A stretch of DNA of 64,000 bases from NCBI GenBank assembly GCA_963693115.1, contig OY843750.1, positions 252,680-316,679 on the forward strand, given 5' to 3'. Source of the stretch: Spirochaetia bacterium. Its GTDB lineage: Bacteria; Spirochaetota; Spirochaetia; WTKD01; G963693115. The translations under genes were made by a program, and so were the position numbers. Shown piece by piece: positions 1-46,023 of this stretch; within the stretch, counting starts at the first letter, position 1, and each line of letters starts with the position of its first letter. The notes beneath the pieces were generated by a model. The model was not told the DNA's origin. It worked only from the letters and a program-made list of their open reading frames with translations, and made no database searches.

Positions 1-343
1 TCAACATTTTCTGCCCTTAGATAAGAAAAAGCATATTGAGCATATCTTGCCACAGAATTTGAACGATAATAATGGCTGGAATGAAATCTTTACACCAGAA
101 GAACGAGAAAAGTACACCAATTGCTTGGGCAATTTAACTCTGTTATCTATGAGAAAAAATATTCAAGCACAGGACAAGAATTTTAAAGAAAAAAAAGCGA
201 TATATACTAATGGAGATAATATAGCTACCTCTTTTGAACTGACAAGGCGAATTTTTGAAAATTCAGTTTGGACAATAGAAGAAATACAAAGGAGACAACA
301 ACAGATGATTGAGGATCTAAACCAAGAAATTAAAATTTTCTGA
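1..343 (+). CDS. GmrSD-type (DUF1524, His-Me/HNH-like) type IV restriction endonuclease, C-terminal fragment; 5' end outside the window
   Basis: The frame is open from nt 2; the ORF-track M at 47 is an internal TTG. KHIEHILPQN ... NCLGNLTLLSMRKNIQAQDKNFKEKK fits the (D/E)H-x2-P ... GNL-x-LL ... N nuclease core of DUF1524. Confidence 0.6.
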   Translation, partial: QHFLPLDKKKHIEHILPQNLNDNNGWNEIFTPEEREKYTNCLGNLTLLSMRKNIQAQDKNFKEKKAIYTNGDNIATSFELTRRIFENSVWTIEEIQRRQQQMIEDLNQEIKIF

Positions 344-527
344 TTTGTACTAAATATGCCAATATCTAAAAAACCAATAATCAGTAGAGGCAAAGTTAAA
401 AAATCACAGATGCGCCTACTAGCAAACACAAACAAAATATACAACTCTTTTATTGGCGATAAAGCCAACAAACTTAAAATTGACTTAATAGACCTAGAAG
501 CCTCTTATAGCCGATATAAGATACATT

Positions 528-1115
528 ATGCCACAAATAGAAACGCTATTGACCCAAGTTAGGGCGTGTACGGTATGCCAAGAGCACCTTCCCCTGGGGC
601 CACGACCTGTTATTCAACTGCACCCTAAATCTAAAATTTTGATAGCTGGACAAGCACCCGGAATAAAAGTGCACAAGTCCGGCGTACCCTTTGACGATGC
701 AAGCGGTAAACGATTGCGAGACTGGTTGGGACTTTCTCGTGAAGAATTTTACAACGCCAAATTAGTATCAATTCTACCTATGGGATTTTGCTATCCCGGC
801 ACAAGCTCTTCGGGCGATTATCCGCCACGCCCCGAATGCTCAAAAAAATGGCGCCATACATTATTATCCCAACTAAAGGCTTTGCAACTAACTGTGGTCA
901 TCGGTCAGTACGCTCAAGCATATCATCTTGATAAATCCCAGCGTTCTGTCACAGAGAATGTTCAAGCTTGGAAACAGTATTGGCCTAAGATCATACCCCT
1001 GCCCCACCCCAGCCCTAGAAACAATCCTTGGTTAGTGCGCAATCCTTGGTTTGAACAAGAATTGTTGCCAAAATTAAAAAATAGAATCAACGAAGTACTA
1101 GAGCGTGATGCCTAA
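528..1115 (+). CDS. uracil-DNA glycosylase superfamily protein (family 4/5-like)
   Basis: 195 aa. CTVC near the N-terminus, motif A GQAPG, motif B HPSPRN near the C-terminus. A small GC hairpin (ctgcc..ggcag, 1137-1152) lies downstream. Confidence 0.7.
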   Translation: MPQIETLLTQVRACTVCQEHLPLGPRPVIQLHPKSKILIAGQAPGIKVHKSGVPFDDASGKRLRDWLGLSREEFYNAKLVSILPMGFCYPGTSSSGDYPPRPECSKKWRHTLLSQLKALQLTVVIGQYAQAYHLDKSQRSVTENVQAWKQYWPKIIPLPHPSPRNNPWLVRNPWFEQELLPKLKNRINEVLERDA

Positions 1116-1433
1116 CAAACACTTTCCGCTTGATAACTGCCCGCGAAGGCAGACTTAAATCGTTAAAAGAGACACCTGCTCTTGGCAAGTTCCTCCTTCA
1201 TCAATCTCAACAAAAAAAACAGGTTTTCTGTTAAACTACAACTAAGATGCAGATTAACTACCACACTAGGCAAAACAAGTCGCAAAAAAACTGCAGGAAC
1301 ATAGCAAAAACAATATGAAAAACAAAAATCTTACCATTGCCAAAAAGACGAAAATCAGCCTACGCTGAAATAATTTTTCCTTTTAAAGTAAAGTGAATTG
1401 TAATTAAGAGGTTAAGATTAATAGTATAAAAAC

Positions 1434-3416
1434 ATGCAAATAAAAATACCTACGATAGACAATCAAAATTCTGAAATAATAAACATCTCTAATCAAAAAT
1501 CTTGTATATTGGTTGGAGCAAGTGGCGCTGGGAAAACAAGACTCAGTATTTATATTGGTGAACAAATAGAAGCAACTTATAAACGTCACCTAGAGTGTAA
1601 AAATGAAATTGGAAGATTAAAAGAAAAATTAGAGGAATGGGAAAACAAAAAAGATGATGATGTTGAAAATAACATTGCACCATATGTGAGTATAAAATAT
1701 AACATTTTTAACAAAGATAGGAAACAAGAAGTTCAGGTTAGTTTATATGAGTTTATAAATATTTGCTTAAAAAGCAATTCGATTACCCAGTTTAATGGAA
1801 CCACTTCTATTACTGCTCCACCGCAAAGTCTTGAAGATATACAAGGGGGAACATTATCACATCCAAGTTTCGGTACAAAAGGAATTGATGTAGATTTATT
1901 AAAGTACTCAGAAAAATACCGTACAGCAGACAATAAAGAAAATATTATTAAGGATTACATTAATTACAATAAAAACAGAATTAAAAAACGCATAGAAACC
2001 AACGAGGAAGAACTAGAGGCATTTGGTAATCCTATTTTTGAGAAAGTACACCGTATCTCTGCTCATAGACAACTTACCCTCAATCAAAATTTATCTCCAA
2101 CAAGACTGGAGCAAGCAAAGCCTCAATTAGTAAATCCGAATAGTGGACAGTGGCAAAAATCTATCACAGCTATACAAAACGACTTTGGTAAATTGATAGT
2201 ACTTCTTTACTCTGAAGAGGCAGAAATATCATCAGAATATACTCAAAAAATCCGAGAAAAGAAACAAGCGAAAACACCTCAATCTGCATTAAGTAGTTTA
2301 ATCAAATTTTGGAATGATATTTTGCCCCACAGACAACTTACTCTAAAAAAGTTAACAATAGAAGTTCAAAATATAAATGACACAAACACCTACGCCCCCT
2401 CTGAAATGAGTGATGGAGAAAGAAATATTTTTTATATTTTAGGACAATGCTTACTTGCTCCCAAAGATTCTTTATGCATTATTGATGAACCAGAATTACA
2501 TATAAATCGCTCTATAGCCAATGATTTTTGGAATTACATTAAAGAAAAGCGTCAAGATTGTGCTTTTCTATTCATTACTCACGATATTGATTTTGTCAAT
2601 GCTAACTCAGACGCTCAAAAATATTTTATTAAGAAATACCAGCATCGAAACAAATGGCATATAGAAAACATAGATAAAAAAAATGAAAGAGGCTTACTGG
2701 AAAACATTAAACTGATTGTATTGGGATCTAGAAAAGATGTCATTTTTGTTGAAGGAGGATATGACTCTCTGGATTTTATAATTTATAGTAAGGTTTATAA
2801 CGATTATTTTATTATACCCGTTGGTTCATGTCAGCAGGTAAAACAACAAGTTAATGCGATTGCTCAAAACAAACAATTTCACCATATTAAAGCTTATGGA
2901 ATTATTGATGGCGACAGTTTAAATAATGAAGAAAAACAAAATAATCAAACAAATCAAATATATGCTTTGTCGGTTGCTATCATTGAAAATATTTTTCTGT
3001 TGGAAGAGGTTATCAATAAAATATGTAAAATAGAAAATATTGAATTAGATAAAAATTATAAAGATAAAATTTTTAATTTTGTAACGGAACATCAAAAAAG
3101 TGATTTAAAAAAGAAAACAAAACATAGACTTGGCAGTGAAATACAAGCATACATAAACGAGAAAGAAATAGATAGTCTAGAGCTAGAAAAATTTGAACCT
3201 AAGAAACTTTATAAAAATTTTGAAAATGAGTTAAAGGGGTTTATTGAAACAAAAGATTTAAATAAAGTTTTATCTTTTTGTCAGAATAAAGGTTTATACC
3301 AAACAATATTAAAACAAGTTTTAAATTGTAACGATGTTAAATTAAAAATAATATCTTTATTAAGACAAGAAGATGTTTTAGATTGCATACGAAAACATTT
3401 ACCATCTATAAGGTAG
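1434..3416 (+). CDS. ABC-type ATPase fused to a DUF4435/OLD-type Toprim nuclease domain (PARIS AriA-AriB-like single-chain protein)
   Basis: 660 aa. Walker A GASGAGKT, long helical insertion, signature-like SDGERN, Walker B LCIIDEPELH, H-loop FITHD. The C-terminal ~200 aa (VIFVEGGYDSLDF ... IIPVGSCQQV ... GIIDGD) looks like DUF4435/Toprim. Very AT-rich codon usage compared with the rest of the window. Confidence 0.65.
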   Translation: MQIKIPTIDNQNSEIINISNQKSCILVGASGAGKTRLSIYIGEQIEATYKRHLECKNEIGRLKEKLEEWENKKDDDVENNIAPYVSIKYNIFNKDRKQEVQVSLYEFINICLKSNSITQFNGTTSITAPPQSLEDIQGGTLSHPSFGTKGIDVDLLKYSEKYRTADNKENIIKDYINYNKNRIKKRIETNEEELEAFGNPIFEKVHRISAHRQLTLNQNLSPTRLEQAKPQLVNPNSGQWQKSITAIQNDFGKLIVLLYSEEAEISSEYTQKIREKKQAKTPQSALSSLIKFWNDILPHRQLTLKKLTIEVQNINDTNTYAPSEMSDGERNIFYILGQCLLAPKDSLCIIDEPELHINRSIANDFWNYIKEKRQDCAFLFITHDIDFVNANSDAQKYFIKKYQHRNKWHIENIDKKNERGLLENIKLIVLGSRKDVIFVEGGYDSLDFIIYSKVYNDYFIIPVGSCQQVKQQVNAIAQNKQFHHIKAYGIIDGDSLNNEEKQNNQTNQIYALSVAIIENIFLLEEVINKICKIENIELDKNYKDKIFNFVTEHQKSDLKKKTKHRLGSEIQAYINEKEIDSLELEKFEPKKLYKNFENELKGFIETKDLNKVLSFCQNKGLYQTILKQVLNCNDVKLKIISLLRQEDVLDCIRKHLPSIR

Positions 3417-3420
3417 CCTA

Positions 3421-3624
3421 ATGAAAACTTACGAAGTGCTTTTAACAAAATCTTACATTGTCACCATTAAGGCTGACAACAAAGATCTAGCAAAAGAATT
3501 TGCACAACTATATACGAGTGATATATCTGACATTTCTTATCTAAAAGAGAAAGAAGAATATTTTGAAATTGAAGATATTGATTGTAAAATCAATGAAGTT
3601 TTTGAAGTAATAGAAGCACAATGA
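3421..3624 (+). CDS. small acidic hypothetical protein (67 aa), operon partner of the ATPase-Toprim gene
   Basis: It starts 4 nt after the upstream stop, and its stop overlaps the next ATG (ATGA). E/D-rich, with no recognisable motif. Coding status is supported only by this tight coupling. Confidence 0.45.
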   Translation: MKTYEVLLTKSYIVTIKADNKDLAKEFAQLYTSDISDISYLKEKEEYFEIEDIDCKINEVFEVIEAQ

Positions 3625-3780
3625 GAACAATCGAAGTAAAAATATCTGAAGGAGACAGCAAAGATGTCTTAAAACAATTAGATGATAATTCTATTGATCT
3701 AATTGCCACATCACCACCCTATGCAGACGGATGAAAGCAAACTTATGGCAGTGTAAGACCTGAAAAATAGGTTTAAATCG
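3622..3780 (+). pseudogene. remnant of an N6-adenine/N4-cytosine DNA methyltransferase (truncated and frameshifted)
   Basis: Encodes MRTIEVKISEGDSKDVLKQLDDNSIDLIATSPPYADG, then TGA. The next frame continues KQTYGSVRPEK, then TAG. SPPY is catalytic motif IV. The >200 aa needed for a functional enzyme are missing; only scattered short frames follow up to ~3950. Confidence 0.6.
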
Positions 3781-4114
3781 TACAATCCAGATCCTGCTGA
3801 TATGCCTTTTCAAAAAATCAGGCGCCCATATAAGCGAAAAAGCTCAATATGAGATTCAAAAAATTATAGATAATTTAGGCTCAGCCACCGACAAACCAAA
3901 CCAAACAAAAGAAATTGAAGTTATTAGGAATGGCGCAGAAGGCATTTAATCAGACTGGCAAAATCACCTCAAAATTCGCCCCTAAAATCTTCAGTGGGCT
4001 TTTTCAAGCCCACTGACCAAACCTACTATGCTCTATGTGCTCTCAATGCCCCTATAGTGTTTCTCAAACGCACTATAGCGCCTTGCGGTGCCTTTTTTGT
4101 ACTCCTGTAACATC

Positions 4115-6301
4115 CTAAGGTGCGGTATAAGGCTTCTGCGCTTCTGCGCTGTTTGGTATATCACCAAAGTCGGGGAGTTTTTGACTATCATTAGAATTGC
4201 TAACAACAGCTATAAACGCTGGCCATTGCCCTGCGGTAAAACTCCATTGGAGTCCAGTAAGTCCTATAAACTCTGCCTTTATCGCATCCCCGGTATCGCT
4301 GCTCGCTACGCTCACTTTTTTCCCAGGCTCAGTGGACGCGCGGTAGTTTGTTGCACTTTCGTCAGTAGTAGGGCTATAGGCGATCCGTTTGCCATTACTC
4401 AGCTGGTACAATCCCCCTTCATCATCCTTAGCCGAATAATAAAAACTAGCTGTACTAGTGCTAGTATCTTTTCCTATTGTGAGACCAAAGTCGGTAGCAT
4501 TACTAGGAACACTCGCCGTACTGATAACATTGCCCCTAAAATATCCTGAGCCAGTAGTAAAGTTATCGGAAGCATATCCTACTAGTCCTCCCACGCTATC
4601 TGCTCCTATCACATCTCCTGTGGCATAACCATGTAAAGAAGATTGACCTATACTACTCACAAGCCCTCCTACGTTTTCATTACCCCGTATAGTGCCAGTA
4701 GAAAAGCCGCTCATACCACCACTCTCTACATATCCAGACAATCCCCCCACGTAGTCCCCGCTCGCACTAACATCTCCAGTGCTATAACCCCTCGCAAAAT
4801 TTTCAGTGCTATAGCCTGCCAGCCCGCCTACATACTTGGTACCCTGTATAGTACCTGTTGCATAACCAATCCCACCATACGCATATCCCGATATGCCTCC
4901 TACATACTCCTCACCAGTTATATCTCCGCTCGAATAGCCATATATTGGACCTCTATTTTGTCCTGCGATACCTCCCACATAGTTCTTTCCTGTTACATTG
5001 CCAGTGGTATAGCTCTTTGTTATTTCACCAACTCCGGATCGCCCCCCTATCAAACCTCCTACATAGCTCCCTAAGGCCTCCACTGCTACCGCTGATGAGC
5101 TCTCTGTCACTGCTGGGTCTGTATCACTATCCATATGCCCCACAAGCCCTCCTACATTAACATCACTGTCAGCTGCTGCTGTGCTCTTCACCGATCCCTT
5201 GCCTTCCTCATCTTCTGTAATATGGACATTGCTTATTGCCCCTCCAGTATACTTGCCTACCAGTGTTCCTACGTTCTTTCCTCCTATTATCTCTGCTCCC
5301 TCTATCCTTACATCATTGATATTACCACTCGCTACTCCAAATAATCCTATATCATCTCCACTACTCTCTATCCTTAAGCCTCGTATCGTATTGTCTCCCC
5401 CATCAAAACTCCCACTAAAACCTGTGGTACTGTCTCCTATAGGGTCATACCCTGCTACTGTTTCTCCCCGCTCATTACAGGACTGATAGGGTAGTTCTAT
5501 GTCTTCTGTCATCGTATAGCTACTCGCTAAGCTTGCTCCTGTTGCTGCTGTTCCTGCTTTCCTCGCTAACCACTCTAACTCTCGCCATCCTTCTATCGTA
5601 TACCATGTTTCTCCTGTCTTCTTCGTTGGTACTACGGTCCCGCTATCCTTGCCTACTACACCGCACCAACTCTCTATATCTATTACTATGCTTACACTCG
5701 CTACTCCTACTGCATCAGTTGCTCTCGCTTGTACTGCTATTGTATAGCCTTCGGTGTATTCTTTATGGAGTCCTCTCCCTATGCTGATTGCTCCACTACT
5801 CTCATCTACTTGTACATGCTCATTGGGTTTGCTCAATGTGTATGCTACTCCACTGGGGGCACTCCCTCCTTCCCACTCGGGTGCTTCTGTTGTGTGCTTT
5901 GTTTGTTCTAATATACTCAGTTCTGTTCCTGTTGTTTTATACTCAAAACTCCCTATCAAGGTTCCTACTTCTAGTTTGATGTTTAGGGTGTAGGTTCCTT
6001 TGTAGTTTCCTGTTCCTGTTGCTTTTATGGTGTATACTTTGTTGTGTTGCCCTGCGTCTACTTCGGTTATCGTGAGTATGCCTTTTTCTTTGTCTATGCT
6101 TAGACCTTCTCCTTCTTGTTCTAGGCTATAGCTTATGCTTTGTCCTGCTTTGCTCCATTGGGGGTAGAGTGTTATGCTTGTTCCTTCTACTATTCCTATG
6201 ATCATTGAGGCTATTCCCTCTACTTCTTGTAAGGGTGATATTACGATACCCTCTGCTTGGCTGGCTTGGTTCTCTAGGCTATAGCTTAGTTCTCCACTCA
6301 A
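4115..6301 (-). CDS. GLUG-motif repeat surface protein with N-terminal Ig-like repeats; probable lipoprotein whose signal peptide is out of frame with any start codon
   Basis: 728-aa ORF starting at TTG. At least 8 repeats of (N/Y)VGGL(V/I/A)G = GLUG motif. Upstream, the same frame encodes LVLISLALTCILGGLFLTC (lipobox) but has no start codon; see findings. Confidence 0.75.
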   Translation of the reverse strand: MSGELSYSLENQASQAEGIVISPLQEVEGIASMIIGIVEGTSITLYPQWSKAGQSISYSLEQEGEGLSIDKEKGILTITEVDAGQHNKVYTIKATGTGNYKGTYTLNIKLEVGTLIGSFEYKTTGTELSILEQTKHTTEAPEWEGGSAPSGVAYTLSKPNEHVQVDESSGAISIGRGLHKEYTEGYTIAVQARATDAVGVASVSIVIDIESWCGVVGKDSGTVVPTKKTGETWYTIEGWRELEWLARKAGTAATGASLASSYTMTEDIELPYQSCNERGETVAGYDPIGDSTTGFSGSFDGGDNTIRGLRIESSGDDIGLFGVASGNINDVRIEGAEIIGGKNVGTLVGKYTGGAISNVHITEDEEGKGSVKSTAAADSDVNVGGLVGHMDSDTDPAVTESSSAVAVEALGSYVGGLIGGRSGVGEITKSYTTGNVTGKNYVGGIAGQNRGPIYGYSSGDITGEEYVGGISGYAYGGIGYATGTIQGTKYVGGLAGYSTENFARGYSTGDVSASGDYVGGLSGYVESGGMSGFSTGTIRGNENVGGLVSSIGQSSLHGYATGDVIGADSVGGLVGYASDNFTTGSGYFRGNVISTASVPSNATDFGLTIGKDTSTSTASFYYSAKDDEGGLYQLSNGKRIAYSPTTDESATNYRASTEPGKKVSVASSDTGDAIKAEFIGLTGLQWSFTAGQWPAFIAVVSNSNDSQKLPDFGDIPNSAEAQKPYTAP

Positions 6302-6486
6302 TGTGCTTATTACGGGACTTGTTTCTCCTGGTTCTGGGTCGCTACTACAGGTGAGGAAGAGTCCTCCTAGTATGCATGTAAGAGCTAGGGAGATGAGGAC
6401 GAGTCCCCCTGTCCGATTGTTTGCTCGGCAACTCCTTGCTTGGTTGGTGGCTTGGTGGTAGCTTTGGTGCTTGCCTTGCTACTATG

Positions 6487-6535
6487 ACTTTGTTTGAGGT
6501 CTTGTTTGAGGTCTTGTTTGAGAGTCTTGTTCTTG
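6487..6535. repeat. 12-bp tandem repeat (gtcttgtttgag), about 3.5 copies, in the 5' leader of the GLUG gene
   Basis: Read directly: gactttgtttgag gtcttgtttgag gtcttgtttgag agtcttgtt. Confidence 0.85.
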
Positions 6536-6823
6536 GTGTGATATTGTATTGTAATGCATGGCATTCTCCTTTGACCACTATTTACTTGGCCTTAGTGTTT
6601 GGTCTTTTTTGACCTAATCGGGGTTATTACTGCTTCCTTGTAGCTCTAGTTTTTCTGGTTTTCTCCATGGTTTTTGCCTTGGCTATTGTTCCTTGGCTTA
6701 TACCCTGTCTACGATCTACGAGGCATAAGGATAGAAAACAGTACTATAATTAATATAGTATATTATAATATTTTTACTATGTAGAAACACGGTATGTATC
6801 GATATGGGTTTGTAAAAAAATTC

Positions 6824-8227
6824 TTAAATATGCCGAATTGCGTCAACAATTTTAAGCCTAAGCGCCTTAAAAGCAGGTATACTACTTGCAACAACAGAAA
6901 GTCCAATAACTGAAAACATAGTTATCAACGATAGCATAAGCGTTTCTTTGTCGAAAGGTGGTATGAGGTAAAGCGAGTAGGGCTTATTATAGGTTGGGGG
7001 AGGAGGAAGGATAATATCGAGCGAAGTAATAAATCTCCCAATTATATGAGCAAGTACAAACCCCACAACAGAACCTATGATACCAAGTACTATTCCCTCA
7101 TTAATAACCATAAAATATAGCGATGTTCTCTTAAGCCCTATCGATCGCAATGTTCCAAACTCAGAGATACGCTCAAATACACTCATACTCATAGTATTTA
7201 AAACCAAAAAGATAACAAGAAAAAACAATATGGTGCTCACCATCGAAAAAATATTGCTAAATAACTGTACTATGGGTTTGTAGACTTCGCTAAGATCAAA
7301 CCAGTGATATAACTCAAGATCTGCACCATAAGTCGCATCGTTCAAAAAATCATCAATAATAGTATAGGCTTGTTCCGTATCGCCTGTATCTTTGAGGTAG
7401 ACGATAATTCTATTAACAGAATCTGTACCCATTATCTCTTGAGCAAAACGCATATCGGTCTTTAGCAAGACATTACCATATTGACGCGAAAAAGTAGATA
7501 AGGTACCATTTACCTCTGCATCAAGAATATCAAAACTACCATACCTATTGACCGCTAAAACCGTTACATAGTCTTCTGGCTGTATACGTAGCTGCGTTGC
7601 CAAGCCTTCACCCAAAACCACTGCATAGGGGTTATCCGGGTCAAGCGCCGAACCATCACGTATGATATCATAACCCGCAATCTCATTGTCTATATCAGAT
7701 ACTACTCCTCTTCCTAAAAAGTTGAGTGATTCGCCACCAGAAGCAGAAGTAAGCGTGCCAGTAAAACTAAGCTCAAATGTAATAAAATCGAGCAACTCAT
7801 TTAAATCTTGGTCTGACTGCAAGCCTTCTACTATACGCTCATAGTCGGATATAAGATATTGCATAGGAGAGCCCGAACCATAGTCAAAAAATCCCTCTTT
7901 CATTATCTGAATATGACCAGTGGTTGAGCGTATCCCTATCTCTCTAACATTAAAAAAATTTCTGTTAAAGTAAACCCCAATAAGAATACTTCCTGTGACG
8001 GCACTTATAAGTGCAAGCAATGTGATGGCTGTTCTCCGTGTATTTTTGACCACATTTCTACATGCAAGACTCACATTTGACCTATCAATGCATAAGAACC
8101 AGATAAAAAATATACACGCACAGAGACCAAGACCCGCTACTATCCAATACACAAACGGAAAAGTCACTCCATACGGTATGCTTGCAAAATCAAAGTACTC
8201 CGCATTGGAGATATTTATATCGTTCAT
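6824..8227 (-). CDS. ABC transporter permease, MacB/LolC-E type (N-terminal TM, large periplasmic domain, C-terminal FtsX 3-TM bundle)
   Basis: 467 aa. One N-terminal TM, ~250 aa extracytoplasmic domain, and a C-terminal FtsX-like segment (VLNTMSMSVFERISEFGTLRSIGLKRT...). Confidence 0.8.
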   Translation of the reverse strand: MNDINISNAEYFDFASIPYGVTFPFVYWIVAGLGLCACIFFIWFLCIDRSNVSLACRNVVKNTRRTAITLLALISAVTGSILIGVYFNRNFFNVREIGIRSTTGHIQIMKEGFFDYGSGSPMQYLISDYERIVEGLQSDQDLNELLDFITFELSFTGTLTSASGGESLNFLGRGVVSDIDNEIAGYDIIRDGSALDPDNPYAVVLGEGLATQLRIQPEDYVTVLAVNRYGSFDILDAEVNGTLSTFSRQYGNVLLKTDMRFAQEIMGTDSVNRIIVYLKDTGDTEQAYTIIDDFLNDATYGADLELYHWFDLSEVYKPIVQLFSNIFSMVSTILFFLVIFLVLNTMSMSVFERISEFGTLRSIGLKRTSLYFMVINEGIVLGIIGSVVGFVLAHIIGRFITSLDIILPPPPTYNKPYSLYLIPPFDKETLMLSLITMFSVIGLSVVASSIPAFKALRLKIVDAIRHI

Positions 8228-8236
8228 CGCATAGCC

Positions 8237-8962
8237 CTACAAACTAGAAAGTTGTAAATACACACTCGCAGCATTATCGATATCTTTATCATCAAGATTT
8301 GTAAAAATACGTATAAGCGTTGTATGCAAGAATACATCGCTCTTTAAGCGAGCTGTATACTGCTTGTCGAGTAGCAGTGTCTTGATAAAGACGATGTCTT
8401 CTTGTACCGTGTCCTCGGTCTCAAATAGTTTTGGGAGATTTGCATAGTTTATTGCACGGTATGCGCGGACAAGGATGCTCTGAGAAAATTGCTCCACTAG
8501 GGTTTCAAAATGCTCAAAGCCACGCTCTACCTGCTTTGATGCCTCAAGCAACTGCCCCTTAGCATTGTATATGGATGCCCTAAAAAAATGCGCCTGCGCA
8601 TGATAGGTGGCAACATATAGTGAGTCATCATCTTTATTAAGTTCCTGCGATTGTAGATAGGCTTCGCCATACAAAAGAATAGACTCAATAATCTCAACAT
8701 TAGCACGAGACGCTTGCTTTAGCTGTTGCTCACGCATCGCCTGAGTAATAAAGCTAGCTACGAGTGCCATATTATCCGAATCTGCCTTCACTTTTTCTTG
8801 GAGTTCGAGCACTTCGCGAGATACAGGTGTTGTTCTCTGACAAGCACTCAATGACAAAAATGCCAGCATACTCAACAAGAGATACAGAAAAAAATGTGAT
8901 AAAAATTGAAAAAAGCCAAATATAGAAAAACCAAATTTAGAAAAATCAGCTATATGCTTCAT
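8237..8962 (-). CDS. hypothetical all-helical (TPR-like) lipoprotein
   Basis: Preferred start is ATG 8962 (GGAG 9 nt upstream, 2 nt after the upstream stop). Signal peptide ends in the lipobox LSLSAC. The remainder is helical repeat-like with no catalytic motif. Confidence 0.6.
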   Translation of the reverse strand: MKHIADFSKFGFSIFGFFQFLSHFFLYLLLSMLAFLSLSACQRTTPVSREVLELQEKVKADSDNMALVASFITQAMREQQLKQASRANVEIIESILLYGEAYLQSQELNKDDDSLYVATYHAQAHFFRASIYNAKGQLLEASKQVERGFEHFETLVEQFSQSILVRAYRAINYANLPKLFETEDTVQEDIVFIKTLLLDKQYTARLKSDVFLHTTLIRIFTNLDDKDIDNAASVYLQLSSL

Positions 8963-8964
8963 AA

Positions 8965-9657
8965 TTATTTTCTCCAATGATCTACAATGATACCATCTTT
9001 TATCGAATACACATTTTCCACAAATTCGGCAATCATGTTGTCATGCGATGCAAAAAGCAGACTCGTTCCTCTTTTTTCTTGTAAATCCCTGAGCAAGGTA
9101 AGAATTTTTTCTCCGGTTTTGCTGTCTAAGTTGGCAGTGGGCTCATCCGCAATGATGAGTTTTGGCTCTATTACCAACGCACGTGCTATGGCTACTCGTT
9201 GACGCTGACCACCCGAAAGCTCATTAGGCTTATGTCGTGCATGGCTCAGTATTCCCGTGGATTCGAGGGCTGCGTGTACTCTTTTTTGTATTTCCTTTTT
9301 TTTAAACTTACTAATGGTAAGCGGGTACGCTACATTTTCAAATACATTGAGCACTGGGATAAGGTTAAAATTCTGAAAAATAAATCCTATGGTTCTACTT
9401 CTAAACTCGGTCAGTTGATCCTCCCGCATAGTAGCCACCTGTTGATTATCAACTTCGACGTAGCCTGACGTTGGTGTATCAATGCAACCAATCAAATTTA
9501 AAGTAGTAGTTTTGCCACACCCCGAAGGACCAACGATACTATTTGAACTCCCCTTTGCAATTGTAAGAGTGAGCCCCCTCAGAGCTGGGATAGTGACCTT
9601 ACCTAGCTGATAATTATGAACAACATCCTTCAATTTGATAATGTCCTGTGAGTCCAC
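8965..9657 (-). CDS. ABC transporter ATP-binding protein (MacB/LolD-type)
   Basis: Walker A GPSGCGKTT, signature LSGGQRQRVAIARAL, Walker B IIADEPTANLD, H-loop ASHD. Confidence 0.9.
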   Translation of the reverse strand: MDSQDIIKLKDVVHNYQLGKVTIPALRGLTLTIAKGSSNSIVGPSGCGKTTTLNLIGCIDTPTSGYVEVDNQQVATMREDQLTEFRSRTIGFIFQNFNLIPVLNVFENVAYPLTISKFKKKEIQKRVHAALESTGILSHARHKPNELSGGQRQRVAIARALVIEPKLIIADEPTANLDSKTGEKILTLLRDLQEKRGTSLLFASHDNMIAEFVENVYSIKDGIIVDHWRK

Positions 9658-9658
9658 G

Positions 9659-10459
9659 CTATAGTTTCTTTTCTTTTCTGTACTGAGTGATAATCAGACG
9701 CAAATCGGCATTGCTCACAAATGTCTCTGCCTGATCTAGATTTTTTCGAGCAAGGTCTGTTTTTTTACTCGTCAAATAAAACTGGGCAAAGCTAAGATAG
9801 ACATTTGCAATGAGGTTATTATAGTCCTGCTTATTATCCAAACGGTTGAGATCTTTGATGGCATCCTTGAGATTATCTTCACCTTCACGCGAGACTTTTA
9901 CAAAACGTGGTACATTACTCAACGAGGTGCCCCGTAAAAACAAAATAAAACCCGACAATAAATAGTCTTTTGAACCATCTTCAGTCTTCCGGTTTTGAGC
10001 CTCGACAAGGGCCTCATCCATATACTCTAAGCCTTTTTCTAAGTACTCTGTTTTCTTTCCTACTTTTCGTAAGGGCAATGCTCCTCCCCATAGTGCAAGA
10101 GAACTCCCCATGTAAGCCTTGATAAAAGGGTGCTTAAACTGATCCCCGCTTTTATACATAGACTCCCAGTACAGGTAATTTTTTTCTGCTTTATCCTTAT
10201 CAAAGGTAAAAAGTGCATCACGAAAGTACAATAGACCCAACTGAACCTGCTCTTCTTGGCTTGCAGGAGAACCACGCCCACTGATTTCCTTGAGCACCGT
10301 TTCATGACTCATAATATTTTCAGGAAGCATAATTAAATCTTGCGTAGCAAATATAGTTTGAGCATGAGCCCGAGTAAATCCATCACCTTGTCCTGTACGG
10401 TGAGCAAAAAATAACATGCACAGTAGCACGTAGATTAATATATGTCTGTTCTTTTTCAT
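9659..10459 (-). CDS. hypothetical exported all-helical (TPR-like) protein
   Basis: 266 aa. Signal peptide MKKNRHILIYVLLCMLFFAHRTGQG...AHA-Q. Its stop lies 1 nt from the ATPase start. No recognisable enzymatic motif. Confidence 0.6.
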   Translation of the reverse strand: MKKNRHILIYVLLCMLFFAHRTGQGDGFTRAHAQTIFATQDLIMLPENIMSHETVLKEISGRGSPASQEEQVQLGLLYFRDALFTFDKDKAEKNYLYWESMYKSGDQFKHPFIKAYMGSSLALWGGALPLRKVGKKTEYLEKGLEYMDEALVEAQNRKTEDGSKDYLLSGFILFLRGTSLSNVPRFVKVSREGEDNLKDAIKDLNRLDNKQDYNNLIANVYLSFAQFYLTSKKTDLARKNLDQAETFVSNADLRLIITQYRKEKKL

Positions 10460-10629
10460 AATAGCTCCTTTATCGCTAAGTATTAAATGTCTTAAATATA
10501 TGTTATTACTATTCTAAATTTTCTATTGCTAACATTGTATCACGATACTCTAATATATACCATATAAATTTGGCACAGAGTTTCAACGTATATCCACTAC
10601 TGTACCACATGTCGTGTCGCCTTCTGTCA

Positions 10630-10660
10630 TCACTAACCTAGTACGTCACTAACCTAGTAC
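10630..10660. repeat. direct repeat tcactaacctagtac x2 (16-bp period)
   Basis: Read directly. It lies in the 207-bp gap between the Omp85-like gene and the ABC cluster. Confidence 0.8.
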
Positions 10661-10666
10661 AACAAT

Positions 10667-12229
10667 CTACCAAAACACCTCGTTAAAACGAATGTCAATA
10701 AAATACCCCGTACTTATCGCCTCTTGTAAAGAGTGTTGAACAAAGCCTACCCCAATTTTTACACGGATATTCACGGGATTCGCTATATCGACATACAGAC
10801 CAGGTCCAAAACCCAACATAAAGATATCCTGCATGCCCGTCTCTCCATAGCCTTTGGGCGTATTCTGTAAAAATGCTATATCAGAATAAAACAAGGCTCC
10901 CAATACAAGCATATTACCAATAGGCCAGGCTCCATAATATTCTAACCCTGTAACAAATGCATCGACACCCCTACTTGGACGATTACCGTCAATGACACGC
11001 ACATACAACATACTACGCATATGTTCTTCGGCATAGTATACGTGCTCAAGGTTTGTTGCAAGCCCATCGGGTAAGTCGCTATTACCATTTAATGCAAGTT
11101 GACCAGCAATCCTTGCATGAATTGCATGATCATAGAGCGCCCTAAACCCTACCTGTCCCTCAAGATCAAAAGCGAGCCAGTACAGCGTATTCGTAACATC
11201 ATTAGTCTCGTTTTCATTTAAATCGCTTAGGTCGCTCACACTCACTTTTGTATGCAAGCCATAGCGTACATAGGATCGAAATACATCGGTACCAGAAAAG
11301 TTATTCTCTCCCAATAATGACACTCTTGAAAGACTACTCCACTTTGCAAGTTCTTCGTATTCACTTCTGTTAGAATTCAACTGTAGTCGTTGTGACACCA
11401 TAAGTTTGTACGCAGGACTTATTACAAATCCCCCATAACCATCAACGGAGCCCTGTGCATAGTGCAGGAACTCGTCAACAGAGTTTCTTAAGGTTGGAAC
11501 CACCCACAAAAATTCGCCTGTAATACCAAACTCAAAGCGCCACAATGGCTGTAACTCAATACCAAGAGGGATAAAATTACCATGATAAAAACTCCCCACT
11601 CGAGTTGCTCCCACATGAACACCCGTGGTTGCACCATTACGAAGCAAAAAGTACATGGAGGCATATGCGTTTCCTCCATTCCAGCCATAAGGAAAAGCTA
11701 CATCAGAAAATATACGTACTATCACGTCTTGTGTAGTAGCATCCTCAGCTATGATCTCATACTCGACAAATATACTTTTACTATCAAGATGACCGACATT
11801 CTTGAGAGCTCGCTCAGTAATTTTGATTCTCCGCAATAATACATCCACAGATATTTCTTGTTTTTCTCGTAGGGGAGAATACGTAAGAATCTCTTTTCTA
11901 TGCATGTATCCATTATCTTCAATACGCTCTTCTTGCACCACATTATCTACGTACACTATTATCTCACGTATTATAACTGTTTTTTCTACTGAGAGCACAT
12001 TGGACGATGCCTCACTAGCATCATTCGCTAGGGAACCATCAATAATAACAAGATCACCGGTATTCCCTGAATCAGGCGATTGTGCAAAAGATCGAAATGG
12101 AGATATAGCTACAAAAAGAATCGACGTTACAAGCATACCCACATACGCCATCACGAAGCATGCTAGTTTTATACGTATCCTGTTTTCTGTACTTATTCTT
12201 GTGCTTATTTTTTGGAGATTTTTTGTCAT
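10667..12229 (-). CDS. putative outer-membrane beta-barrel protein, Omp85/TamA-like with one POTRA-like domain
   Basis: 520 aa. N-terminal signal/anchor ending AQS. A ~90-aa beta-alpha-alpha-beta-beta-like segment (KTVIIREIIVYVDN...DVIVRI). Then a long alternating-hydrophobicity region rich in G/Y/F, ending in the aromatic terminus FNEVFW. Confidence 0.55.
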   Translation of the reverse strand: MTKNLQKISTRISTENRIRIKLACFVMAYVGMLVTSILFVAISPFRSFAQSPDSGNTGDLVIIDGSLANDASEASSNVLSVEKTVIIREIIVYVDNVVQEERIEDNGYMHRKEILTYSPLREKQEISVDVLLRRIKITERALKNVGHLDSKSIFVEYEIIAEDATTQDVIVRIFSDVAFPYGWNGGNAYASMYFLLRNGATTGVHVGATRVGSFYHGNFIPLGIELQPLWRFEFGITGEFLWVVPTLRNSVDEFLHYAQGSVDGYGGFVISPAYKLMVSQRLQLNSNRSEYEELAKWSSLSRVSLLGENNFSGTDVFRSYVRYGLHTKVSVSDLSDLNENETNDVTNTLYWLAFDLEGQVGFRALYDHAIHARIAGQLALNGNSDLPDGLATNLEHVYYAEEHMRSMLYVRVIDGNRPSRGVDAFVTGLEYYGAWPIGNMLVLGALFYSDIAFLQNTPKGYGETGMQDIFMLGFGPGLYVDIANPVNIRVKIGVGFVQHSLQEAISTGYFIDIRFNEVFW

Positions 12230-12416: not shown

Positions 12417-12481
12417 CATTACTTGAGGCTTTCCTTGAGGCTTTCCTTGAGGCATTACTTGAGGCATTACTTGAGTACTTT
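12417..12481. repeat. 12-bp tandem repeat (cttgaggctttc / cttgaggcatta), 5 copies
   Basis: Read directly in the divergent intergenic region between the Omp85-like gene and recQ. Confidence 0.85.
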
Positions 12482-34685: not shown

Positions 34686-34795
34686 GCTTGGCAACTTCCT
34701 ACTCTCCCGCTTGCGCAGTACCATCGGCGTAGAAGGGCTTAACTGCCGTGTTCGGAATGGAAACGGGTGTTACACCTTCGCTGTTATCACCAAGC
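34686..34795 (-). rRNA. rrf: 5S ribosomal RNA (stand-alone)
   Basis: The reverse complement reads gcttggtgataacagcg...cccgtttccattccgaacacggcagttaagc...gccgatggtactg...gggagagtaggaagttgccaagc (110 nt). The ends form helix I (gcttgg/ccaagc). Confidence 0.92.
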
Positions 34796-42888: not shown

Positions 42889-43047
42889 ACCAACTATAAA
42901 TACACAGACATCAGAACACATCACGTTTTATATGGCAGTGGTATTAATACACACACCCTACAAAACCACAATACGGATAAATTCTACGCAATGCCATATA
43001 CAATGACACTACACAGAAATTTGATAATACGCTTTATAATGCAATTA

Positions 43048-46023
<2,976 letters not shown>

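Follow-up and report, generated by a model that had tools for sequence, protein, structure and literature searches.

What is a MacB-type ATP-binding cassette (ABC) transporter doing in a spirochaete when its two genes are interleaved with those of two helical exported proteins, and does the orphan exported protein encoded beside it belong to the same system? The question is raised by a 64,000-nucleotide (nt) stretch of the Spirochaetia bacterium contig OY843750.1 (positions 252,680 to 316,679; hereafter the window, numbered from its first letter). We propose that four of the genes found there represent, in reduced and reordered form, a widespread accessory export module whose core is a homodimeric MacB-type (type VII) ABC transporter, a reading that we find rather more convincing than not. 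The four proteins belong to families of this module and their relatives recur together within it; the locus departs from it by an atypical gene order and by gene losses. The genes in question all lie on the minus strand and are listed from the upstream end, with lengths in amino acids (aa) and the evidence for each in brackets; TPR denotes tetratricopeptide repeat and NBD nucleotide-binding domain.

10667..12229, minus strand: orphan exported protein, 520 aa, C-terminal FNEVFW (reading of open reading frames, ORFs)
10460..10666, minus strand: intergenic gap of 207 nt between the 520-aa gene and the probable four-gene operon (ORF spacing)
9659..10459, minus strand: TPR1, a 266-aa periplasmic, all-helical TPR-like protein with a signal peptide (TPRup profile, hhalign, BLASTP to L089)
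8965..9657, minus strand: ABC ATPase, 230 aa, GTG start, of the LolD/FtsE/MacB-NBD type (Pfam, NCBIfam and PDB matches)
8237..8962, minus strand: TPR2, a 241-aa lipoprotein (Cys41), divergent paralogue of TPR1 (TPRup profile, hhalign, BLASTP to L089)
6824..8227, minus strand: MacB/FtsX-type permease, 467 aa (Pfam FtsX and MacB_PCD)

All five ORFs are intact, and reading them on the minus strand reproduced what an earlier note on this DNA had described, namely five same-strand genes in that order and with that spacing, together with the lipobox and the terminal FNEVFW. The four genes from TPR1 to the permease (9659-10459, 8965-9657, 8237-8962 and 6824-8227) most likely form one operon and would be co-translated, because only 1 nt separates TPR1 from the ATPase, 2 nt the ATPase from TPR2 and 9 nt TPR2 from the permease. 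The 2-nt gap is counted from the ATG at 8962; an alternative TTG at 8977 would make the TPR2 ORF overlap the ATPase. The lipobox of TPR2 reads LSLSA/C (the slash marks cleavage), the lipidated residue being Cys41. The TAG stop of this lipoprotein and the ATG of the permease share a frame and lie three codons apart (8227-8239); a recoding of TAG, considered for this junction and for an in-frame TAG TAG further downstream (see below), was rejected since TAG ends 20 of the 44 window ORFs. No convincing terminator was found in the 207-nt gap, where promoter-like sites occurred at background level in consensus scans; the gap contains a 16-nt direct repeat (10630-10660). The absence of a MacA-like adaptor and of a TolC-like gene, to which the earlier note had drawn attention, holds as well: among the ORFs between 528 and 16321 that were compared with Pfam or NCBIfam, none matched the HlyD/MFP or TolC/OEP families.

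The transporter is readily identified. The ATPase matches Pfam ABC_tran (2.7e-33), its best NCBIfam names are LolD, FtsE and MacB, its top PDB matches are MJ0796, YtrE, LolD and MacB, and its motifs are intact (Walker A GPSGCGKT, signature LSGGQRQR, Walker B LIIADEPT). The permease matches Pfam FtsX over residues 329-458 (8.8e-16) and MacB_PCD over residues 66-289 (1.8e-07). An extra N-terminal transmembrane (TM) helix (residues ~22-46) precedes TM1, and a periplasmic domain some 230 aa long separates TM1 from TM2-4. An FtsX TM domain, a periplasmic domain and a cognate ATPase, the features that define a type VII (MacB/FtsX-type) ABC transporter, are thus all present, and the MacB/FtsX-type pair recognized in the earlier note is borne out by the FtsX, MacB_PCD and ABC_tran matches. 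As there is a single permease gene, the permease is presumably homodimeric. The extra helix, which would put the permease N-terminus in the periplasm, is missing from most of the family but kept in the closest relative that we found, locus L089.

To which branch of the type VII transporters does the pair belong? One possibility is that it is a housekeeping, LolDF-like homodimeric lipoprotein-release system, the TPR-like proteins being lineage-specific add-ons. LolCDE and LolDF extract lipid-anchored cargo from the inner membrane and pass it to a periplasmic carrier; like the window pair they are type VII ABC transporters with four TM helices and a periplasmic domain, the best NCBIfam names obtained here are LolD and LolC/E, the single permease gene is as in LolF systems, and LolF and LolE are among the PDB matches. 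The scores point elsewhere. The LolCDE equivalog cut-offs are far from reached (61.6 versus 362 bits for TIGR02212; 217.6 versus 307.75 bits for TIGR02211, LolD), and in the PDB the permease obtains 30 bits with YtrF, 27 with LolE and 21-27 over LolE, LolC and LolF, against about 235 bits with the permeases of the accessory module. By these comparisons it belongs to the accessory-module subfamily, to which it is far nearer than to LolC/E/F or MacB (about 25-30 bits); its identity to proteobacterial and acidobacterial members is 32-34%. Unlike in the Lol systems, the LolA-like profile finds no LolA nearby in the 64-kb window, and TPR partners are, to our knowledge, not part of Lol systems. Finally, members of the module occur on plasmids and beside polyketide synthase (PKS) genes, and in Borrelia the module coexists with a chromosomal Lol system, according to Nixon et al. 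(Biosci Rep 2026; PMC13078400). We consider a housekeeping Lol function improbable.

The accessory module became visible through a tblastn search of plasmids, followed by a scan of GTDB genomes and JGI metagenomes with an alignment of four permeases, which yielded 160 further loci; a scan of genome contigs with the window permease sequence alone gave no match where the alignment query succeeded. Profiles of the neighbouring genes were iterated and counts were made over 127 single-permease loci, 89 or 85 of them comparable depending on the count. The loci come from Thermoanaerobaculia and other Acidobacteriota, Proteobacteria, Cytophagia, Fibrobacter, Verrucomicrobia and Nitrospirae, and also from spirochaete metagenome-assembled genomes (MAGs; L057 in a Spirochaetaceae, L083 in a Treponemataceae). 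A typical module encodes a TPR-like protein (family TPRup), the ATPase, the FtsX permease, a LolA_like protein (PF17131) and an outer-membrane barrel of about 400-530 aa (family HYP400). The ATPase gene stands directly upstream of the permease gene in 82 of 89 loci and the order TPRup-ATPase-permease is found in 35 of 89; a LolA-like gene directly follows the permease in 67 of 85, and the succession permease-LolA-like-HYP400 is present in 63 of 85 (~74%). On proteobacterial plasmids, with permeases 30-32% identical, the order is ATPase, permease, an 'outer membrane lipoprotein-sorting protein' that proves to be Pfam LolA_like (2.4e-35), and a hypothetical protein of about 400 aa. Several features indicate that HYP400 is a family of outer-membrane barrels: 72 of 87 members close a β-signal of the G.R.YF type with F, Y or W, compared with 4.7% of background ORFs ending in one of these residues, and the one PDB entry that the profile matches is named '50 kDa outer membrane protein' (E 0.024). 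Neither NCBIfam nor Pfam holds a model for the TPRup or HYP400 proteins, and literature searches found no paper describing the module outside Borrelia.

The gene neighbourhoods of the module give an indication of what it may carry. Over 60 loci, from a wide range of phyla, carry the full module, and it repeatedly adjoins genes for type I PKS, for fatty-acid synthesis or for acyl carrier protein (ACP) and ketosynthase (KS). All the large ORFs next to it at L012, L017, L071 and L044 encode type I PKS, and on an Escherichia coli IncK2/Z plasmid it lies within a cluster of ACP, KS, short-chain dehydrogenase/reductase (SDR) and crotonase genes, a small TPR-like protein being encoded immediately upstream of the ATPase. 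At many loci, genes for a histidine kinase and a LytTR regulator are present as well. Because type I PKS, ACP, KS, SDR and crotonase genes are among its neighbours, a lipid-type cargo is suggested, and the module has the appearance of a so far undescribed route for exporting lipidic products. There is a parallel in DevBCA, which exports PKS-derived glycolipids. DevBCA-TolC and MacAB-TolC share with the window a MacB-type permease and an ATPase; unlike them, the window has no membrane-fusion protein and no TolC duct, its partners being TPR-like proteins (and, in its relatives, LolA-like ones too). The observation on the wider family is probably worth more than the one on the window itself, since it hints at an unrecognized export of hydrophobic products.

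Are the two helical proteins of the window part of this module? When 675 six-frame segments of the window were searched with the TPRup profile, exactly two matched, namely TPR1 (46.7 bits, E 1e-13, nearly full length) and TPR2 (19.3 bits, E 2.7e-5). In hhalign comparisons with TPRup, TPR1 reaches a probability of 97% (E 4e-11) and TPR2 of 57% (E 1e-4). Both keep the core motif of the family, R..R..N....(L/V)P..F, in which the proline is nearly invariant, and TPR2 has the motif YRA.NY..LP.LF in common with its counterpart in L089. An AlphaFold2 model of TPR1 made without an alignment has ten helices (pLDDT 60, pTM 0.57), in support of the earlier description of the 266-aa protein as helical; a Foldseek search with the model returned generic TPR, 14-3-3 and Rap matches, none of them significant (none at E < 0.1). 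Direct homologue searches (word-indexed, over 5.8 billion clusters) found for each of the two proteins only itself, and neither matched a Pfam or NCBIfam family. The possibility that either is a degenerate LolA-like protein was rejected, there being no similarity to the LolA-like profile. From these profile matches and from the L089 comparison below, both proteins are members of the TPR-like family of the module, and hence conserved partners of the transporter rather than chance neighbours.

L089, on metagenome contig JACSEG010000075.1, has a permease 46% identical to that of the window, extra N-terminal helix included. Its operon runs TPR1, ATPase, permease, LolA-like protein (175 bits with the family profile), a HYP400-type barrel of 526 aa (86 bits) and TPR2, the TPR1 gene being cut by the contig end. 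In BLASTP the window TPR1 matches that of L089 with 32% identity (E 3e-27), TPR2 with 22% over 161 aa (E 4e-10) and the ATPase with 51%; the 520-aa protein shares with the 526-aa barrel just a 41-residue patch (E 0.5). Judged by these alignments, the L089 operon encodes orthologues of four proteins of the window cluster, and the 520-aa protein is the only one of the five without a counterpart. The L089 TPR2 bears an N-terminal transmembrane anchor where that of the window carries a lipobox, and TPRup members elsewhere have signal peptides of the signal peptidase I (SPI) type, none with a lipobox. The helical proteins are thus syntenic with the ABC pair, the TPRup family standing upstream of the ATPase in other phyla and both orthologues lying in the L089 operon. 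The earlier proposal that these proteins are transporter partners gains from this family membership; that they would be the sole substitute for an adaptor does not follow, since related loci (~74%) add a LolA-like carrier and a barrel.

A cluster of this kind has been described in Borrelia burgdorferi. According to PMC13078400, a purely computational study, the products BBJ23 and BBJ24 of the lp38 cluster BBJ23-BBJ29 are paralogous TPR proteins, each with an SPI signal peptide; BBJ25 is an Omp85-type barrel that lacks POTRA, BBJ26 the ABC ATPase and BBJ27 a MacB-like permease forming a homodimer, while BBJ28 is LolA-like and BBJ29 uncharacterized. The authors propose that the TPR proteins, the MacB-like ABC transporter and the Omp85-type barrel carry a non-polar ligand or a lipoprotein to the outer membrane. 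In our comparisons the window permease scores 77 bits with BBJ27 (23% identity over 373 aa, well above its score with any solved structure but less close than the proteobacterial and acidobacterial members) and the ATPase is 35% identical to BBJ26; TPR1 aligns weakly but collinearly with BBJ23, and the 520-aa protein shows no similarity to BBJ25. BBJ28 scores 116 bits with the LolA-like profile, and in hhalign the BBJ23/24 family reaches TPRup with a probability of 79% (E 1.6e-5) and BBJ29 reaches HYP400 with 31% (E 5e-4), so that BBJ29 is probably a HYP400-type barrel and BBJ23-29 a distant member of the wider module. Like the Borrelia cluster, the window has two paralogous TPR-like proteins, an ATPase, a homodimeric MacB-like permease and an adjoining gene for a β-barrel or, in the window, for a probable outer-membrane β-protein, and lacks a membrane-fusion protein and TolC. 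It differs in that the LolA-like BBJ28 and BBJ29 have no counterpart in it, in that its second TPR protein is a lipoprotein encoded between the ATPase and the permease, and in that BBJ25 has 346 aa and no POTRA whereas the window protein has 520 aa and an additional N-terminal domain. The idea, already put forward in the earlier note, of TPR proteins, an ABC transporter and a barrel working together in trafficking is therefore essentially in print for Borrelia; what is new here is that the helical proteins are placed in a conserved family.

How might such a machinery work? If it acts as LolCDE and MacB do, the ATPase dimer in the cytoplasm would set the periplasmic domain of the permease in motion by mechanotransmission, and this motion would lift a hydrophobic cargo, most likely a lipid or lipid-like product and less likely an acylated protein, from the outer leaflet of the inner membrane. 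TPR1, which would be soluble, and TPR2, lipid-anchored to a membrane, may either dock on the transporter or receive the cargo. Periplasmic TPR domains that handle hydrophobic or lipidated cargo with a membrane partner are known from Slam and from TPATs (in Treponema pallidum, the TatT TPR protein with a TRAP transporter); the transporters or barrels are different there and no significant homology was demonstrated, the TPRup member of the E. coli plasmid giving a weak match to Pfam TPR_Slam (E 0.0075). In typical members of the module the LolA-like carrier and the dedicated outer-membrane barrel would complete the route. As both are absent from the window locus, onward transfer would depend on components encoded elsewhere or possibly on the adjacent 520-aa protein. 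That the TPR proteins are kept where carrier and barrel are missing suggests that they act at the transporter itself. The window may thus be seen as a natural minimal version of the module, two TPR proteins, an ATPase and a permease without a LolA-like protein or the family barrel, which argues for counting the TPR proteins among the core partners of the transporter, and which offers a simple system for probing their roles. It also bears on how lipids and lipoproteins reach the outer membrane in diderms without LolB or with unusual envelopes.

The window thus shares with the pan-bacterial module the permease subfamily, the ATPase and the TPRup family, and differs from it by gene content and order. 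Several observations weigh against our assignment to that module. Neither a LolA-like nor a HYP400 gene occurs in the six-frame translation of the 64-kb window, so the route is incomplete as seen; none of the 89 comparable loci has a TPR gene between the ATPase and the permease; and no PKS, fatty-acid or other biosynthetic genes and no two-component-system genes flank the operon, which bears on the cargo. A single moderately close relative, L089, was found, and its contig breaks off at the TPR1 end, leaving nothing to compare upstream of that gene. Lastly, we know of no experiment on any member of the module, Borrelia included. The same losses could mean that the locus is a decaying remnant, its genes non-functional or repurposed once the LolA-like protein and the barrel were gone and the 520-aa protein an unrelated protein of the surface or outer membrane encoded alongside. 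The two most conserved downstream components are indeed missing, the genes stand in a scrambled order, the sequences of all three accessory proteins have diverged extremely, and the next gene downstream, for a 728-aa GLUG protein, is apparently broken by two in-frame stops. Against decay stand five intact ORFs and intact ATPase motifs, the preserved tight spacing of 1-9 nt, a TPR2 that has gained a good lipobox and the TPRup motif kept in both TPR proteins. We give the remnant hypothesis little weight and retain a reduced but maintained export module as the preferred reading.

There remains the 520-aa protein, the 'one-POTRA Omp85-like barrel' of the earlier note. Its codon usage matches that of the rest of the window (r = 0.82), and for this reason the ORF is a real native gene. 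By eye, a long signal-like N-terminus with a probable cleavage site SFA/QS is followed by a mixed N-terminal domain of about 130 aa and a Gly/aromatic-rich, β-amphipathic C-terminal region of about 340 aa. Residues 181-520 contain 11% Gly, 14.5% aromatic residues and 1.5% Lys, and the fraction of β-amphipathic windows, 0.15, was the highest measured (0.14 for BBJ25). On this composition the protein is a probable outer-membrane β-protein; the one tie that may link it to the operon is adjacency. Homologue searches, by exhaustive phmmer of 1.84 billion representatives and by a word-indexed search of 5.8 billion clusters, returned only the protein itself, and looking up contigs by its exact sequence gave no record; Pfam and NCBIfam gave no match, not even fragments at E up to 10, and phmmer against the PDB gave nothing but a marginal 52-residue patch of the P22 tailspike (E 0.025-0.17). 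In hhalign its probability against the BBJ25 family, BBJ29 and BamA/TamA was about 1% or less, in a comparison whose positive control, BBJ25 against BamA/TamA, failed too. The Omp85 label is accordingly left unconfirmed, no Omp85, POTRA or BBJ25 profile having matched significantly. Three other identities were rejected: a divergent HYP400 barrel (HYP400 profile probability 0.1%), a LolA-HYP400 fusion (no similarity, and no such fusion among 96 family members) and a BBJ25 homologue (no similarity). In L089 the barrel slot is taken by the HYP400-type protein, which is unrelated to it in sequence.

An envelope-spanning device could nonetheless be imagined in which the 520-aa protein is a one-POTRA Omp85-type insertase that joins the TPR proteins and the ABC pair in setting lipoproteins or lipids into or onto the outer membrane, without a LolA/LolB step. 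The gene is adjacent and on the same strand, the protein has a signal peptide and an aromatic C-terminal residue, and residues 181-520 resemble the BBJ25 and BamA/TamA barrels in composition and β-amphipathicity. Its last 80 residues look by eye like the Omp85 FxDxG and G.G...P...R strands, a resemblance and not a result, and its N-terminus scores E 0.06 with a profile of eight E. coli POTRAs, between left-out true POTRAs (0.0006-0.02) and negative controls (0.5-0.8). Moreover, a weak BBJ25-like ORF ends the L083 cluster, and according to PMC13078400 an Omp85-type barrel accompanies an ABC module of this kind in the Borrelia clusters. On the other side stand the non-significant Omp85, BBJ25 and POTRA profile scores, the 207-nt gap, which could house a separate promoter, and a single-sequence AlphaFold2 model so uninformative (pLDDT 32) that it was discarded and no fold search was made with it; in addition, since no homologue is detectable, synteny with the ABC pair cannot be shown. 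We judge this device unlikely, if the most credible of the alternatives. A more specific variant, in which the protein is a POTRA-bearing Omp85-type (or otherwise new) acceptor that has replaced both the LolA-like carrier and HYP400, the TPR proteins bridging extractor to insertase, seems to us a long shot; if true, it would amount to a carrier-free, envelope-spanning route for lipoproteins or lipids.

Two further observations concern the relatives of the Borrelia cluster. In the Borrelia 'group 2' clusters on lp25 of Borrelia sp. RT5S (L085, 8400-11713) and lp28-8 of B. afzelii PKo (L086, 8335-11655), genes for SagB, SagC and YcaO (streptolysin-S-like) and for a CAAX protease directly follow the BBJ23-29-type genes, a possible hint at the cargo or at a co-function of these clusters. 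In the Treponemataceae MAG, L083 (3722-9456) encodes a BBJ23-like TPR protein, an ATPase, a permease, a LolA-like protein and ORFs of 368 and 338 aa, the last of which matches BBJ25 weakly but collinearly (E 0.28). This may be a BBJ-like cluster outside Borrelia, contrary to the Borrelia-only distribution of the seven-gene cluster given in PMC13078400.

Around the operon, the window shows some features of its own. Downstream of the permease on the minus strand, a 728-aa ORF with GLUG/cadherin-like repeats (4115-6301) seems to have lost its start. Upstream of it there is an ATG with a good ribosome-binding site (6559-6557), followed by in-frame 12-nt repeats and TAG TAG (6484-6479), and after these stops come a lipoprotein-type signal, LFLTC/SSD (Cys codon 6349-6347), and the listed TTG start at 6301; the region, including 6302-6601, could be explained by a pseudogene, by an error in sequencing or by an unusual start. 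The intergenic tandem repeats have units of 12-16 nt: CATTACTTGAGG is present in 4.9 copies upstream of the 520-aa gene (12417-12475), the 16-mer of the 207-nt gap in 1.9 copies, and TTGTTTGAGGTC in 3.4 copies downstream of the permease (6490-6531).

The ribosomal RNA genes are unlinked, the 5S gene (34686-34794) lying 8.2 kb downstream of the 23S gene (43047-46023) with protein-coding ORFs in between, one of them for an 822-aa DUF285-repeat protein, and no 16S gene was found within 18 kb upstream of the 23S. Compared with the 23S genes of the plasmid collection, the sequence shows only about 74% identity to any of them, Firmicutes and Treponema alike, Treponema saccharophilum having marginally the best bit score, and by this measure the lineage is clearly isolated. 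At the start of the window, positions 1-4000 have a GC content of 30-35%, against about 40% elsewhere, and encode a family-4 uracil-DNA glycosylase-like protein and a 660-aa AAA_21/DUF4435 protein (an OLD/AbiEii-like ATPase); this segment may be a defence or mobile island.

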